The notes beneath the pieces were generated by a model, which was given only the letters and a program-made list of their open reading frames with translations, made no database searches and had not been told where the DNA came from. Positions 2,847-49,524 of a DNA stretch of 64,000 bases are shown here, one piece after another. A program made the translations under genes and the position numbers. Within the stretch, counting starts at the first letter, position 1; every line of letters starts with the position of its first letter. The stretch is from a virus (lineage: Duplodnaviria; Caudoviricetes), in IMG/VR virus record IMGVR_UViG_3300033121_001789, positions 1 to 64,000 of that record, one strand, 5' to 3'.

Positions 2847-3704
2847 TTAAAAATTTTCTCCATATTTCTCATACATTTTTATCCATTTTCGAATAGCATT
2901 ATCAGAAACATTATAAATTTTACCTGTTCCGACAAATCCATAATTTTTGATTTCTTCCAATAGTTGATTATACGGAGGTCTATTTGATTTTCTTTGCCTT
3001 TTTTGTGAGTTTATCTCCGAAATAGAAAATCCAAAATTTTGTTCCTTTTCTTTTTCGGTATTTATATCTCCTTTCTTTTTTCTATTTTTTAGTAGACCCT
3101 TATAACCTCTACAATGTGTCTCCAAAGAAGCATTACAATTCGGGCACAAAATTCTTAAATTTTCTATTCTATTATCTTTTGATATACCATTTATATGATC
3201 TAATATTAGAGATATTTTTTCACCTCTCCAATTTTCTGTTTGACCACATTTCTCACATATTTTTTGTTTTAAATTGTATTTATATAATTTTTCTTTCAAA
3301 TAATTACTTCCTATTATTGATCCATCAACCAACCAATATGATAATGGCTTTTCAACTTGATTATTATTTCGATTATTTTTCCATGGATCAAAATGTGAAA
3401 AATCTATATTACTTCTTTCGATAAATTTCTTTAAAACCTTATAAGACTTTCCAGATATTGATTTATTTAATTTTCTAAATACCTCAGCAAATGAAAAAGA
3501 ATTTTTCACAACATCATTTATCAAAGTAATATTGTAATATAAACTATCACTATCTACAATTAATCCTAGATTTTTAGCTTTTTTGTGTATAGATCCTCTT
3601 GTATGATTTGGCAACAAAGGTAATACATATTTAATCCCCCTATAATAATTATTGTTAAGTATGTCTATCTCACATTTTAGCCATTTGTTTCTACTTTTAG
3701 TCAT
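2847..3704 (-). CDS. HNH homing endonuclease next to the tRNA cluster
   Basis: CEKCG...LILDHINGISKDNRIENLRILCPNCNA; C-terminal HTH-like VSDNAIRKW. Confidence 0.9.
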   Translation of the reverse strand: MTKSRNKWLKCEIDILNNNYYRGIKYVLPLLPNHTRGSIHKKAKNLGLIVDSDSLYYNITLINDVVKNSFSFAEVFRKLNKSISGKSYKVLKKFIERSNIDFSHFDPWKNNRNNNQVEKPLSYWLVDGSIIGSNYLKEKLYKYNLKQKICEKCGQTENWRGEKISLILDHINGISKDNRIENLRILCPNCNASLETHCRGYKGLLKNRKKKGDINTEKEKEQNFGFSISEINSQKRQRKSNRPPYNQLLEEIKNYGFVGTGKIYNVSDNAIRKWIKMYEKYGENF

Positions 3705-3758
3705 TCATTTCATTTTAATTATATATATTATAATTAAAATGTCAAAAATAGAATACTG

Positions 3759-3829
3759 TAATACTAACGAGAATCGAACTCGTATCTATTGTCTGAGAAA
3801 CAATTATCCTACCATTAGACGATAGTATC
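3759..3829 (-). tRNA. tRNA-Glu(CTC)
   Basis: Acceptor GATACTA/TAGTATT; anticodon arm ATTGT-TTCTCAG-ACAAT; T loop GTTCGATTC; no encoded CCA. Confidence 0.85.
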
Positions 3830-3852
3830 ATATGAATTAATTACATAATTTG

Positions 3853-3923
3853 TAGTCCCGCACGGATTCGAACCGAAATTTAGTCATAGAAAGTGACTCG
3901 TCCTACCCTTAGACGACGGGACC
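3853..3923 (-). tRNA. tRNA-Glu(TTC)
   Basis: Acceptor GGTCCCG/CGGGACT; anticodon arm AGTCA-CTTTCTA-TGACT (pyrimidine at position 37); GGTTCGAATCC. Confidence 0.85.
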
Positions 3924-3930
3924 ATATTTG

Positions 3931-4013
3931 TTGGTAGGGAGGGATTCGAACCCCCGAACTCCGAAGAGAACAGTTTTACAGACTGTCAGCTTTAACCACT
4001 TGCATACCTACCA
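3931..4013 (-). tRNA. tRNA-Tyr(GTA)
   Basis: Acceptor TGGTAGG/CCTACCA; ACAGT-CTGTAAA-ACTGT; type II variable arm CTC-TTCG-GAG; GGTTCGAATCC. Confidence 0.92.
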
Positions 4014-4022
4014 GTGTTGTTG

Positions 4023-4105
4023 TATCGCGTACGGGGATCGAACCCGTTCACATCTTTCGAATCCAGATTGAAAGTCTGGTGCCCTACCTAATAGGCGAAC
4101 GCGAC
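4023..4105 (-). tRNA. tRNA-Glu(TTC) with an atypically long variable loop
   Basis: Acceptor GTCGCGT/ACGCGAT; CCAGA-CTTTCAA-TCTGG; 15-nt variable region; T arm ACGGG-TTCGATC-CCCGT. Confidence 0.8.
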
Positions 4106-4110
4106 ATTTG

Positions 4111-4204
4111 AGGGAGAGGTGAGACTTGAACTCACTTACTGGGAAGTCCACTACGACAATTTGTTAACCAGACCTGTTTTACAGACAGGCGCCGTTACTC
4201 TCCC
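4111..4204 (-). ncRNA. D-armless tRNA-like RNA with GTA (Tyr) anticodon and enlarged variable arm
   Basis: Acceptor GGGAGAG/CTCTCCC; 8 nt in place of the D arm; CCTGT-CTGTAAA-ACAGG; about 37-nt variable region closed by CTGG/CCAG; GTGAG-TTCAAGT-CTCAC. Confidence 0.7.
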
Positions 4205-4220
4205 TTCTTTATTTTTTTTG

Positions 4221-4311
4221 TTGGAGTGGATGGAATCGAACCACCAAACAGGATCCATACGGCTTATTTCACTCTCTGTCAGGGCTTACGTGCCCCTGCC
4301 GATACACTCCA
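4221..4311 (-). ncRNA. second D-armless tRNA-like RNA with an irregular GTA-containing loop
   Basis: Acceptor TGGAGTG/CACTCCA; 6-nt connector; CAGGG-GCACGTAAG-CCCTG; about 34-nt variable region closed by ACAG/CTGT; GGTGG-TTCGATT-CCATC. Confidence 0.65.
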
Positions 4312-4315
4312 ATAT

Positions 4316-4354
4316 AAAAACAAAAAACCCAGTCAATGTTGACTGGGTTTTTTG
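4316..4354 (-). terminator. intrinsic terminator (attenuator) immediately upstream of the Tyr/Glu tRNA array
   Basis: Minus strand CAAAAAACCCAGTCAA-CA-TTGACTGGGTTTTTTG-TTTTT: perfect inverted repeat plus U tract. Confidence 0.9.
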
Positions 4355-4375
4355 CAAAAACTTTATATTCTTAAA

Positions 4376-4392
4376 CAAATAACTTAGCCAAC
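4376..4392 (-). promoter_or_regulatory. putative antiterminator strand overlapping the leader-peptide stop codon
   Basis: GTTGGCTAAGTTATTTG can pair at 14 of 17 positions (one G-U) with the terminator 5' arm CAAAAAACCCAGTCAAC. Confidence 0.7.
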
Positions 4393-4464
4393 TACGAACT
4401 TAGGTTCATACTCATATCCTTCATAAGAAGAAGTAAGAAGTGATATGTTGTTGTTATTAGTCAT
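4384..4464 (-). CDS. putative attenuator leader peptide, 26 aa: MTNNNNISLLTSSYEGYEYEPKFVVG
   Basis: Translated by hand; control run TAT GAA GGA TAT GAG TAT GAA; A-rich start context AAGTTAAATAAA-ATG; stop lies 29 nt before the terminator stem. Confidence 0.75.
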   Translation of the reverse strand: MTNNNNISLLTSSYEGYEYEPKFVVG

Positions 4465-4496
4465 TTTATTTAACTTTTAAAAATTTTTATTTTTTG

Positions 4497-4577
4497 TAGC
4501 GGGAAGAGGATTTGAACCTCTGTCTTTCATTGCTTCGGGTTATGAGCCCGATGACCTTACCACTAGTCCACCCCGCG
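4497..4577 (-). tRNA. initiator tRNA-fMet(CAT) with an extended variable loop
   Basis: C1:U72 mismatch; TCGGG-CTCATAA-CCCGA with three G-C pairs; 13-nt variable region. Confidence 0.85.
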
Positions 4578-4587
4578 ATATTATTTA

Positions 4588-4595
4588 CAAATATA
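4588..4595 (-). promoter_or_regulatory. Bacteroidota-type -7 promoter element for the fMet-leader-tRNA transcript
   Basis: TATATTTG matches TAnnTTTG, 10 nt upstream of tRNA-fMet. Confidence 0.6.
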
Positions 4596-4640
4596 CAAAT
4601 ACTTTTTAAATTTTTAAAATTTTTTAAAAAATATTTTTTG

Positions 4641-4735
4641 TAGCGGGAGATGGATTCGAACCATCGACCTCAAGGTTATTTCTTCCTGATTTAATCAAAA
4701 ACGAGCCTTGCGAGCTGCCTCTGCTCTATCCCGCA
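4641..4735 (-). tRNA. initiator-type tRNA-Met(CAT) interrupted by a 23-nt insertion in the anticodon
   Basis: TGCGGGA/TCCCGCT (1:72 mismatch); CAAGG-CTC[GTTTTTGATTAAATCAGGAAGAA]ATAA-CCTTG; intact D and T arms. Confidence 0.75.
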
Positions 4736-4752
4736 ATATTTCTTTGTATTTC

Positions 4753-4761
4753 TATATATTA
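4753..4761 (-). promoter_or_regulatory. TAATATATA (putative late) promoter upstream of the tRNA cluster
   Basis: Same 9-mer precedes many genes in the window. Confidence 0.5.
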
Positions 4762-4821
4762 AAAAGTTTAACTCTTTTTTAATAAAAATGAAACTTTTTT
4801 ATATTTTTTAATTAAAAAAGT

Positions 4822-5253
4822 ATGAATAATACAAATTTACACTTGTTTGTAATAAATGGGTTATTAGATCATAGAGATACATCAAAAGTAGAAAGACTGT
4901 TTCAAAATATCTTAGATTGGGAAGATATGAAATACTTAGCTTGTTGTCATGAAATAAAAAATGGACAAGAAATATTCATTTGTTGTTTTGCTAAAGAAAA
5001 AATAAATCTTTTAGATAAAGAGTTATCAAAACTAAAGGTAATAATAAAGTCAGAAGATATATCTGAAATAGCTCTAAAATCAAAACATTGTGAAGAATTG
5101 GAATTAGTTATAAAAGATCATCCTGATAACAAAATCATAATTGAAAATTTCATATTAGATAATATAGATTTAGATATAATCCTAGATAAAATTTGCTACC
5201 ATGGGATGGAATCACTAAGTCGAGTCGAAAAAAAATATCTAGAAACTTTATAA
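4822..5253 (+). CDS. hypothetical protein with DUF6576-like C-terminal helix pair
   Basis: DIILDKICYHGMESLSRVEKKYL. Confidence 0.65.
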   Translation: MNNTNLHLFVINGLLDHRDTSKVERLFQNILDWEDMKYLACCHEIKNGQEIFICCFAKEKINLLDKELSKLKVIIKSEDISEIALKSKHCEELELVIKDHPDNKIIIENFILDNIDLDIILDKICYHGMESLSRVEKKYLETL

Positions 5254-8392: not shown

Positions 8393-8631
8393 ATAATTTT
8401 ATTTAATTTAAAATCCCTAACCTCATTTAGTGGCATATTACAATGTAGAATAATATCCCCATCAAATCCATAAATAAATTTTGTTAGTTTGTATTTTTTA
8501 GGCAATCCATTATCAGCAAAAAACTTTTCAAGAATATCATAAGACATATGTTTATTAAAATCTAAGAAAGGTTTCTCACTAACTATTGTTCCAATAACAA
8601 CACCGCAAGATTTTATTTTAATTTCTGTCAT
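8389..8631 (-). CDS. hypothetical protein with the shared C-terminal motif
   Basis: Ends VRDFKLNKII. Confidence 0.7.
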   Translation of the reverse strand: MTEIKIKSCGVVIGTIVSEKPFLDFNKHMSYDILEKFFADNGLPKKYKLTKFIYGFDGDIILHCNMPLNEVRDFKLNKII

Positions 8632-48030: not shown

Positions 48031-49524
48031 ATGGATATTAAAAAATATAACAATTTTCTAATTGATCAAAAATTATATGAAATAATAAATGAATCAATAT
48101 TAAATGAATCAATGATTCATTATAAAGAAGAATTTAGAAAAGTATTAACTAAAATGAGTTCTCCAATATCTAAAGATATTTTAGACTTAGAAAATAAAGA
48201 CATTAAAACAAATTTTAATCTTATCGACACATCAAAAGATGGATACTTATCATTTATCTCCTCAAAAACTACTTTAAAATATAAAATAACTGATAATGAT
48301 TGGACATATGAAGATTGGCCGGAATTATTCAGATCTGTTGGCGAAACTGAAGATGAATATCCCACATTACCAGATGGGACTGTCGGTGAAATAATATCTA
48401 TAATTAGTGATAAAAATTTTTCAGAAATGCCAAAAGATGGTAGAGAAATAGCTTATTTTCGATCAGATTCGGGTGAAATTTGTTTCATAGATAAAAGAGG
48501 TTTAGATTTAATAACCAAAGCAAATACACAAGAAGTAAAAATAGGAAGATTAGCATCACAACTATTACAGAATGTAAAAAATAAATATTCTGATAAAGAA
48601 ATAGAAAATTTTGTCAATGAATTTAAATCAAGATTAGATATAATTCGAGATAAATTTCGACTATTTGAATTGGTAAGTGGAGATCAAATAAGACATTTTT
48701 ATAATGAAAAACAATATGATACTAAAAAAATGGGACCTCTACACTCTAGTTGTATGAGATATCAAAAATGTCAAGTATTCTTTGGAATATACACGGATAA
48801 TCCAAGCGTTTGTCAACTTTTAATACTTAAAAGTGAGGATGAAGAAGATAAAATAGTCGGTAGAGCATTAATTTGGAAATTAATAGATGGTACTTATTTC
48901 ATGGATAGAATCTACTATGTAAATGATTCACAAGTAAATCTATTTAAAGAATATGCAATATCAAAGGGATGGTGTTATAAAATTAGACAAGAATCAAGTG
49001 ATTCAACCCCCGTAGAATTTAGTAAAGATGTTTTTTATACTGATGATATAACAGTCAAATTAGAAAAATCTGTTTTCAAAAAATATCCGTACATGGATAC
49101 TCTAAAATATCTAGATGAGGGCTCTAATATACTTTCAAATAACTCTAAATATTCTGATATTGAATTGGAATCCACAGAAGGATCAAGGGGTGAAGACTGT
49201 GGTAGATGTGATGGGGAAGGGACTGTCGAGTGTCCAGAATGTGGAGGTGACGGGACTAGAGAATGTTATAACTGTTATGGTAATGGTACTGTTGATTGTA
49301 TCGAATGTGATGATGGAAATATTGAGTGTGGAGAATGTGATGGAACTGGATATAATGATGATGAAAAATGTGATAACTGTAAGGGATCTGGTGAGGTTGA
49401 ATGCTCAAAATGTGAAGGAAGAGCTGATATAGAATGTGATAGATGTGATGGAAGAGGAGAAAGAACTTGTGGGGATTGTGATGGAGATGGTACTGTTTCT
49501 TGTCCAGAATGCAATGGAGACTAA
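48031..49524 (+). CDS. hypothetical protein with ten C-terminal CxxCxGxG-type zinc-finger repeats
   Basis: SCMRY, GRALIW, FMDRIY core, then CGRCDGEG through CPECNGD. Confidence 0.8.
   Translation: MDIKKYNNFLIDQKLYEIINESILNESMIHYKEEFRKVLTKMSSPISKDILDLENKDIKTNFNLIDTSKDGYLSFISSKTTLKYKITDNDWTYEDWPELFRSVGETEDEYPTLPDGTVGEIISIISDKNFSEMPKDGREIAYFRSDSGEICFIDKRGLDLITKANTQEVKIGRLASQLLQNVKNKYSDKEIENFVNEFKSRLDIIRDKFRLFELVSGDQIRHFYNEKQYDTKKMGPLHSSCMRYQKCQVFFGIYTDNPSVCQLLILKSEDEEDKIVGRALIWKLIDGTYFMDRIYYVNDSQVNLFKEYAISKGWCYKIRQESSDSTPVEFSKDVFYTDDITVKLEKSVFKKYPYMDTLKYLDEGSNILSNNSKYSDIELESTEGSRGEDCGRCDGEGTVECPECGGDGTRECYNCYGNGTVDCIECDDGNIECGECDGTGYNDDEKCDNCKGSGEVECSKCEGRADIECDRCDGRGERTCGDCDGDGTVSCPECNGD

Follow-up and report, generated by a model that had tools for sequence, protein, structure and literature searches.

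The element described here lies on the minus strand of a 64,000-nt stretch of viral DNA (IMG/VR record IMGVR_UViG_3300033121_001789). This whole stretch is referred to as the window, and all coordinates are given in it. Read on the minus strand, the locus consists of a tRNA-Met, a short open reading frame (ORF), an intrinsic terminator and an array of tRNA and tRNA-like genes (Table 1). The original prediction took it for a leader-peptide attenuator gating a phage Tyr/Glu tRNA array. Direct reading of the sequence confirms the 26-codon ORF at 4464–4384 and its run of Tyr and Glu codons around a single Gly codon. The strong intrinsic terminator announced ahead of the array is also present: its stem of 16 pairs, 6 of them GC, carries a 4-nt loop, is followed by a T tail and folds in isolation with -23.7 kcal/mol. 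In the window the leader stop lies about 29 nt upstream of this stem. Downstream, the T run extends to 4316, and a gap of 4–5 nt separates it from the first tRNA-like RNA, which begins at 4311/4310. Six tRNA or tRNA-like genes had been claimed for the array; four are clear tRNAs (Glu-TTC, Tyr-GTA, Glu-TTC and Glu-CTC) while the other two are only tRNA-like. All belong to the Tyr/Glu set, and the array ends at 3758. On the 109,852-nt contig of this phage ARAGORN calls only six tRNAs, all from this locus, which leaves no second unit of the same phage for comparison.

Table 1. Features of the locus, listed in the direction of transcription (coordinates of the 64,000-nt window).
Feature	Coordinates	Strand	Remarks
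Candidate phage-type promoter motif TTTTAATATATA	4753–4764	-	before the first tRNA of the locus
tRNA, CAT anticodon loop split by a ~23-nt insert	4640–4735	-	ARAGORN, Rfam (50 bits); upstream of the putative gate
TATATTTG, match to the Bacteroidota-type -7 promoter consensus	4588–4595	-	read from sequence
Initiator-like tRNA-Met (CAT), 82 nt, long variable region	4496–4577	-	ARAGORN, Rfam tRNA (55 bits)
Leader ORF, 26 codons + TAA	4384–4464	-	ATG at 4464, TAA at 4386–4384
Control codons 14–20	4405–4425	-	TAT GAA GGA TAT GAG TAT GAA (Tyr-Glu-Gly-Tyr-Glu-Tyr-Glu)
Small hairpin across the last control codons	4393–4410	-	predicted in folds of truncated transcripts
Putative antiterminator 5' strand GTTGGCTAAGTTATTTG, spanning the stop codon	4376–4392	-	predicted to pair with 4344–4338 and the rest of the terminator 5' arm
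Intrinsic terminator: stem-loop 4355–4320, T tract to 4316, spacer of 4–5 nt	4311–4355	-	terminator scan and fold
Aberrant tRNA-like RNA 1	4222–4311	-	acceptor and T arm, non-canonical interior
Aberrant tRNA-like RNA 2	4110–4205	-	GTA anticodon loop, no D arm, long variable region
tRNA-Glu (TTC), 84 nt, unusually long variable region	4022–4105	-	ARAGORN, Rfam
tRNA-Tyr (GTA)	3930–4013	-	ARAGORN, Rfam
tRNA-Glu (TTC)	3852–3923	-	ARAGORN, Rfam
tRNA-Glu (CTC)	3758–3829	-	ARAGORN, Rfam

The region matches LR745206 and LR756502, two uncultured megaphages whose genomes exceed 630 kb; 50 kb of each was read (labels L001 and L003 for stretches of LR745206, L002 and L004 for stretches of LR756502). They were reported from a subsurface sample in Japan and a lake in France (PMC9723777). 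Both contain a unit of the same build, in which Tyr and Glu codons cluster in a short ORF and a Glu/Tyr array follows the terminator. IMG/VR was searched in addition by terminator stem pattern and with an automatic unit finder, which yielded units from about 20 further contigs, several of them of 385–483 kb; ten units are of the Tyr/Glu type. ORFs homologous to the leader of the window are found in L003, L004, L099, L046, L050, L061, L037, L041, L094 and L111.

The arrangement is not restricted to Tyr and Glu. In the stretches of LR745206 and LR756502 most tRNA blocks consist of a promoter-like motif, a short ORF, a terminator, and tRNAs for the residues in which the ORF is enriched. His, Phe, Trp and Lys tRNAs follow a leader in which His, Phe, Lys and Trp abound, and four Lys tRNAs follow one of 8 codons, four of them Lys. 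Arg-ACG and Ser tRNAs are headed by Ser/Arg leaders, and Ile-TAT, Gly and Ala tRNAs by Ile/Gly/Ala leaders; a leader with Asn, Leu, Thr, Met, Val, Ile and Arg heads a block of exactly those tRNAs. Among the IMG/VR units, three Gln tRNAs lie behind a leader with five Gln codons in a row, and Pro, Gln, Lys, Tyr, Thr and Gly leaders precede blocks of such tRNAs. Two blocks in the stretches of the two megaphages are leaderless: the initiator-like tRNA-Met, and a block with Gly-GCC and Ala. Behind the Tyr/Glu-type leaders of L094 and L111 the block also comprises Gly tRNAs (and in L094 Ile and Ala tRNAs as well); these leaders have codons for Gly, Ile and Ala interspersed with those for Tyr and Glu. 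This suggests that the gain or loss of tRNA isotypes in a block is tracked by the matching leader codons. The T tract is followed after 4–20 nt by the first tRNA or tRNA-like RNA, in the window as in most units; the array would thus be reachable only by reading through the terminator.

To quantify the match between leader codons and downstream anticodons, amino-acid frequencies were drawn from 78 long ORFs of the same contig as the window, and the family was filtered to 41 units (terminator of -13 kcal/mol or stronger, stop 0–45 nt ahead of it, identical peptides merged). At the phage's own frequencies, a cluster of at least 6 Tyr/Glu in any 7 of the 25 residues of the window leader has P ~3e-4. 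In frame 0 the array can decode a fraction of 0.24 of its codons, against 0.04 in each other frame; for the family the corresponding fractions are 0.341 against 0.136 and 0.111. Over the 41 units the mean excess of tRNA-matched residues in the leaders is 0.195, compared with 0.021 ± 0.015 after shuffling, and none of 20,000 shuffles reaches it. With one representative for each of eight unit types, the true pairing is the only one of the 40,320 permutations that attains the observed score. The correlation between codons and anticodons in homologous loci, on which the original prediction had staked itself, is therefore strongly positive in the 41 units as well as across the eight types.

The match extends to the choice among synonymous codons. 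The codons of matched residues are decodable by the downstream anticodons in 391 of 431 cases, against 361 ± 5.5 expected under genomic synonymous usage (0/5000 redraws). Leaders before Arg-ACG, Arg-GCG or Arg-TCG use CGN at 10 of 10 positions, though CGN makes up about 15% of the genomic Arg codons, and leaders before Arg-TCT use AGA at 4 of 4. Such matching at the level of codons suggests that the units sense tRNA species, not amino acids. Matched codons are concentrated in the middle of the ORFs, the last 6–10 codons being unmatched, and the distance from stop to terminator varies little across units, being kept within 15–33 nt (median 24). Chance matching was rejected by the permutation, codon-redraw and frame tests alike.

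The segment at 4392–4376, the putative antiterminator strand, starts 12 nt past the last Glu codon; it had been described as pairing with the terminator 5' arm at 14 of 17 positions; a count by hand gives the same value. With RNAduplex the tail and the arm of the window form 15 pairs with bulges at -14.4 kcal/mol, an energy equalled by 49 of 5000 shuffled tails (1%) and by 0.3% of genomic 33-mers. When the full transcript from leader to terminator is folded, the terminator always forms, whichever region a ribosome masks. Such a full-length equilibrium fold is uninformative for a kinetic switch, and the transcript cut before the 3' arm was therefore folded. Its minimum free energy structure pairs 4392–4386 with 4344–4338 and covers nearly the whole 5' arm, with a total of -14.6 kcal/mol. 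The ribosome was then simulated by constraint folding, with a footprint from -15 to +14 nt. The predicted antiterminator persists with the footprint on any of codons 14–20 and is lost once the A site has reached codon 22 or any later one up to the stop codon, which itself falls inside the antiterminator strand. Rfam models matching the terminator weakly (rli38, MicX, the rimP and rnk leaders, Spot 42) were discarded, all being far under their gathering scores and confined to the hairpin.

Since the leaders are too divergent for a reliable alignment, column-by-column covariation was replaced by a comparison of each tail with its own terminator arm and with those of other units. Over the 41 units, tails pair with their own 5' arm at a mean of -13.6 kcal/mol and with other arms at -9.2 kcal/mol (0/20,000 permutations). 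The tail of the window ranks its own arm first among the 41. In units with unrelated terminators (His/Phe, Arg/Ser and the Asn block) the own arm is also at or near the top rank. Compensatory changes can be read in the helices GUUGGCU:AGUCAAC of the window, UAGUUGAUG:CAUCAACUA of L099, its closest homologue, GUCAGAC:GUCUGAC of L003 (LR745206) and AUCAGAC:GUCUGAU of L050.

Together, a short ORF, a cluster of control codons, a terminator with, judged by space and consensus, no promoter in between, an antiterminator exclusive with it and masking by the ribosome in silico make up the structure of a leader-peptide attenuator, apart from an anti-antiterminator. On the strength of these sequence data we consider it likely that the locus is a ribosome-mediated transcription attenuator controlling the phage Tyr/Glu tRNA operon. 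The tracking of anticodons by leader codons and the covariation of antiterminator and terminator in relatives both support this interpretation, which was that of the original prediction. Its observed basis comprises the parts themselves, their conservation, the codon–anticodon matching, the antiterminator covariation and the in-silico geometry.

The attenuator would work as follows. Transcription would start upstream, traverse the initiator-like tRNA-Met, which is ungated because it is transcribed before the terminator, and enter the 26-codon leader. With ample charged tRNA-Tyr and tRNA-Glu, the ribosome would pass codons 14–20, proceed to the stop and cover 4392–4376; the hairpin 4355–4320 would then form and transcription would end before the array. 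With slow decoding of Tyr or Glu codons, the ribosome would stall at 4425–4405 and leave 4392–4376 free to pair with the emerging 5' arm of the terminator. No terminator would form, and RNA polymerase would continue into the Tyr/Glu tRNA genes. The outcome would be a negative feedback on the supply of exactly tRNA-Tyr and tRNA-Glu. The position of tRNA-Met, needed for translating the leader, ahead of the gate fits this model. The small hairpin across the last control codons (4410–4393) is a possible pause hairpin for RNA polymerase. The unit of the window would be one member of a paralogous family, each member of which would gate its own block, so that most megaphage tRNA blocks would be controlled separately.

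Several points nevertheless weigh against an attenuator. Leader translation, stalling and conditional read-through are steps that we infer from the sequence. In its overall composition the window leader is weakly biased (6 Tyr/Glu of 25 residues, P = 0.078), and its duplex taken alone is moderately convincing, as 1% of shuffles equal its energy; on its own the window is suggestive, not compelling. The large permutation counts obtained with the 41 units overstate independence because homologous units share ancestry, and the test on eight unit types is the conservative figure. At equilibrium the terminator (-23.7 kcal/mol) would win easily over the antiterminator (-14.6 kcal/mol), so that the switch must be kinetic. 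No anti-antiterminator (pairing of the 1:2 type) appears in the folds of the window, and the hairpin 4410–4393 does not compete with the antiterminator; an untranslated transcript would therefore read through. In several homologues the antiterminator ends 16–27 nt before the stop, so that a terminating ribosome would mask it only marginally. On the promoter side, TATATTTG at 4595–4588 is a consensus match only and is not enriched. Finally, a motif TTCTTTGA(A/C) occurs immediately past the T tract in about 9 of the 41 relatives, and is absent from the window. It is found just after the terminators of L004 (24098–24160), L037, L050, L054, L079, L086, L020 and L119, and may be an internal promoter or else a processing or protein-binding site. 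As regards the anti-antiterminator, such a structure is not universal among leader-peptide attenuators.

The motif TTCTTTGA(A/C) bears on the first alternative, in which the terminator merely ends the transcript of the tRNA-Met and of a small, non-regulatory ORF, the array being transcribed from an unrecognised promoter, e.g. for a phage polymerase or sigma factor, at or after the terminator. Besides the conservation of TTCTTTGA(A/C) in relatives, a near match to TAnnTTTG (TATATTGG) overlaps the start of the tRNA-like RNA. The sigma-70 scan revealed no convincing promoter for the array, but phage promoter types are outside the coverage of such scans. Judged by space and consensus, however, the spacer of 4–5 nt behind the T tract offers no room for an independent promoter ahead of the first tRNA-like RNA, and the window lacks TTCTTTGA. 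A separate promoter would also leave unexplained the match between codons and anticodons, its frame specificity, the spacing from stop to terminator and the covariation of tail and arm. We hold this alternative to be improbable.

For the promoter placed at 4588–4595 in the original prediction, the consensus match is there, but the TANNTTTGTA pattern is not enriched in the window (11 occurrences against 9 expected), and no TTTG was seen in the window at the usual -33 spacing before TATATTTG. In relatives a TAT(A/C)TTTGTAAAAG-like element is conserved upstream of the Tyr/Glu leaders, with TTTGG further upstream. Another motif, TTTTAATATATA, is enriched in the window when at most one mismatch is allowed (23 against 9.2 ± 3.2 expected), and is probably a second, phage-specific type of promoter. 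In LR745206 and LR756502 it stands 8–25 nt ahead of most leader ATGs, often preceded by a short AAAAG...CTTTTT inverted repeat.

In a second alternative, the products of the short ORFs would themselves be functional, as a family of micropeptides that have the N-terminus in common and vary in their core. Each ORF would have its own leaky terminator, and the tRNA arrays would follow by synteny only. An N-terminal pattern is indeed common to leaders of different unit types (Met, Lys/Asn/Arg, Thr, x, x, Asn, Ile), and some cores, e.g. in the Ile/Gly/Ala units, appear hydrophobic. But the core tracks the anticodons down to the choice of synonymous codons, which the function of a peptide does not need, the C-terminal tails are constrained as RNA to pair with their own terminators, and at eight codons the Lys leaders are too short to specify a peptide that folds. 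We give this explanation little credence.

Translation could also control read-through by another logic, the ribosome occluding the terminator or a coupled ribosome suppressing termination; good decoding would then raise tRNA synthesis, or a stalled ribosome would mask the hairpin. The Lys mini-leaders (L003 3136–3165 and its counterpart in L004, ~8590–8620) would suit such a scheme: they have 8 sense codons, four of them AAA, their stop abuts the 5' arm of the hairpin, the T tract is weak, and a ribosome on the Lys codons would cover the arm. Their layout suggests that in these particular units a stalled ribosome occludes the hairpin directly, with no separate antiterminator. For the window this logic is very improbable, because its stop lies ~29 nt before the stem, beyond the footprint of a ribosome, and a specific, covarying antiterminator exists.

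Several RNAs of the locus depart from canonical tRNAs. The tRNA-Met at 4577–4496 was initially labelled tRNA-fMet; ARAGORN and Rfam call it a tRNA-Met (CAT), and the initiator label rests on features read from the sequence that are those of bacterial initiators, namely the CAU anticodon, the 1:72 mismatch and three G:C pairs (GGG:CCC) at the bottom of the anticodon stem. Its long variable region is atypical for an initiator tRNA. More generally, isotypes that normally have a short variable loop (Glu, Met, Lys, Arg and Asn) occur here in versions of 82–90 nt with a long variable region, beside copies of normal length. This is the case of 4022–4105 and 4496–4577 (minus strand) in the window and of 3293–3379, 48055–48144 and 48398–48484 in L003. 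In the tRNA at 4735–4640, excising the ~23-nt insert, which is too short for self-splicing, restores CTCATAA. The homologue of this CAT tRNA has no insert in LR745206 (L001 3053–3125) and a longer one in LR756502 (L002 ~2996–3110), at the same position and with the same start, GTTTTTGATT.

The two aberrant RNAs, 4311–4222 and 4205–4110, are not called by ARAGORN, and Rfam gives them only weak matches to tRNA-Sec (23 bits) and tmRNA (9 bits). The first has an acceptor and a T-arm sequence and carries GTA in a 6-nt loop (z -0.5); its interior is a helix (CGGC...GCCG, with compensatory changes in relatives) around a hairpin with a GUAAG loop. It is kept directly after the Tyr/Glu terminator in L046 (4560–4652) and L050 (206–295). 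The second folds with an acceptor, a T arm and a 7-nt CUGUAAA loop containing GUA, has no D arm (z -3.4), and shows a D-arm-like hairpin (GUC-GUAGUG-GAC) within its 37-nt variable region. A similar element lies in L099 just upstream of its Glu/Tyr tRNAs.

Directly after the tRNA array lies a gene for an HNH endonuclease (2847–3704, minus strand; Pfam HNH, E 9e-6), preceded at 3718–3745 (minus strand) by a perfect sigma-70 consensus, TTGACA-16-TATAAT. From its sequence the gene is likely a mobile homing-endonuclease insertion. The relatives of its protein (3704–2847) in IMG/VR did not bring along the homologous leader unit, and the terminator pattern served as search anchor instead. All sampled 31-mers of 3700–4800 are found in three wastewater metatranscriptome runs of one study, from which nothing is concluded about expression, transcript ends or habitat.

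The proposed attenuator resembles the leaders of trpL, hisL, pheL, leuL and pheST (pheM) and the multivalent leaders thrL and ilvGMEDA in its short ORF, control codons, terminator, and antiterminator against the 5' arm that a ribosome at the end of the ORF masks. The multivalent leaders are also the counterpart of the multi-isotype units of the relatives. Unlike in attenuators of the trpL type, the genes controlled here would be tRNAs instead of biosynthetic enzymes or synthetases; the product being a tRNA, it would directly correct the slow decoding that is the signal. The phage units differ further in that the match reaches the level of the anticodon (CGN versus AGA), in that no anti-antiterminator of the 1:2 type was found in the window, and in that they are phage-encoded and repeated as a paralogous family before many blocks. 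With T-box riboswitches they would share the sensing of tRNA status and the switch between terminator and antiterminator. A T-box, however, needs no translation: it contacts the uncharged tRNA itself, by means of a specifier codon and the T-box sequence. The phage units, in contrast, have an ATG, a stop in frame at a fixed distance and clusters of several codons that are specific to the frame. The Rfam scan of 3400–5200 gave no T-box match at E <= 1.

The only stress-induced tRNA array that our literature search found described is the trn operon of Anabaena PCC 7120, a supernumerary array that is silent and becomes induced when translation is impaired (PMC8421152). Its control involves direct repeats in the promoter that are bound by the repressor TrcR (PMC8421152, PMC10272220), and the 2021 text (PMC8421152) mentions neither attenuation nor a leader or terminator. 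The trn response is global, whereas that of the phage units would be resolved by isoacceptor. Full-text search found no account of leader-peptide attenuation of tRNA genes, most subscription journals being outside its coverage. Control of tRNA genes in the style of the trp operon would be a new class of target for a known mechanism, of which we found no published description.

The role of phage tRNA genes has been debated for decades, between compensation for codon usage, replacement of degraded host tRNAs and escape from anticodon nucleases. Two studies report that phage tRNA genes replace depleted host tRNAs as a counter-defence against tRNA-targeting immunity, PARIS and anticodon nucleases (PMC10264068, PMC11464382). 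These studies concern the tRNAs themselves, not a sensor gating their transcription as proposed for the phage units. The units might form an anticodon-resolved network sensing the tRNA pool and doubling as counter-defence, in which cleavage by a nuclease would cause a stall and replacement tRNAs would follow within one transcription event; the odd forms (D-armless or with long variable arms) may escape the nuclease or soak it up. We put this forward tentatively and think it rather unlikely; a host anticodon nuclease as trigger, put forward by the original prediction, and the aberrant tRNA-like RNAs as decoys are speculation.

The leader, antiterminator and terminator are short, modular and easily moved, and the units could act as natural biosensors for the availability of specific tRNAs. 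If the proposed mechanism is correct, it would extend classical attenuation to stable RNAs as targets and would link translation elongation to tRNA synthesis by a more direct feedback loop than any known. Should the attenuators work in this way, megaphages would gauge the speed of decoding for each codon and replenish every isoacceptor group as the need arises.

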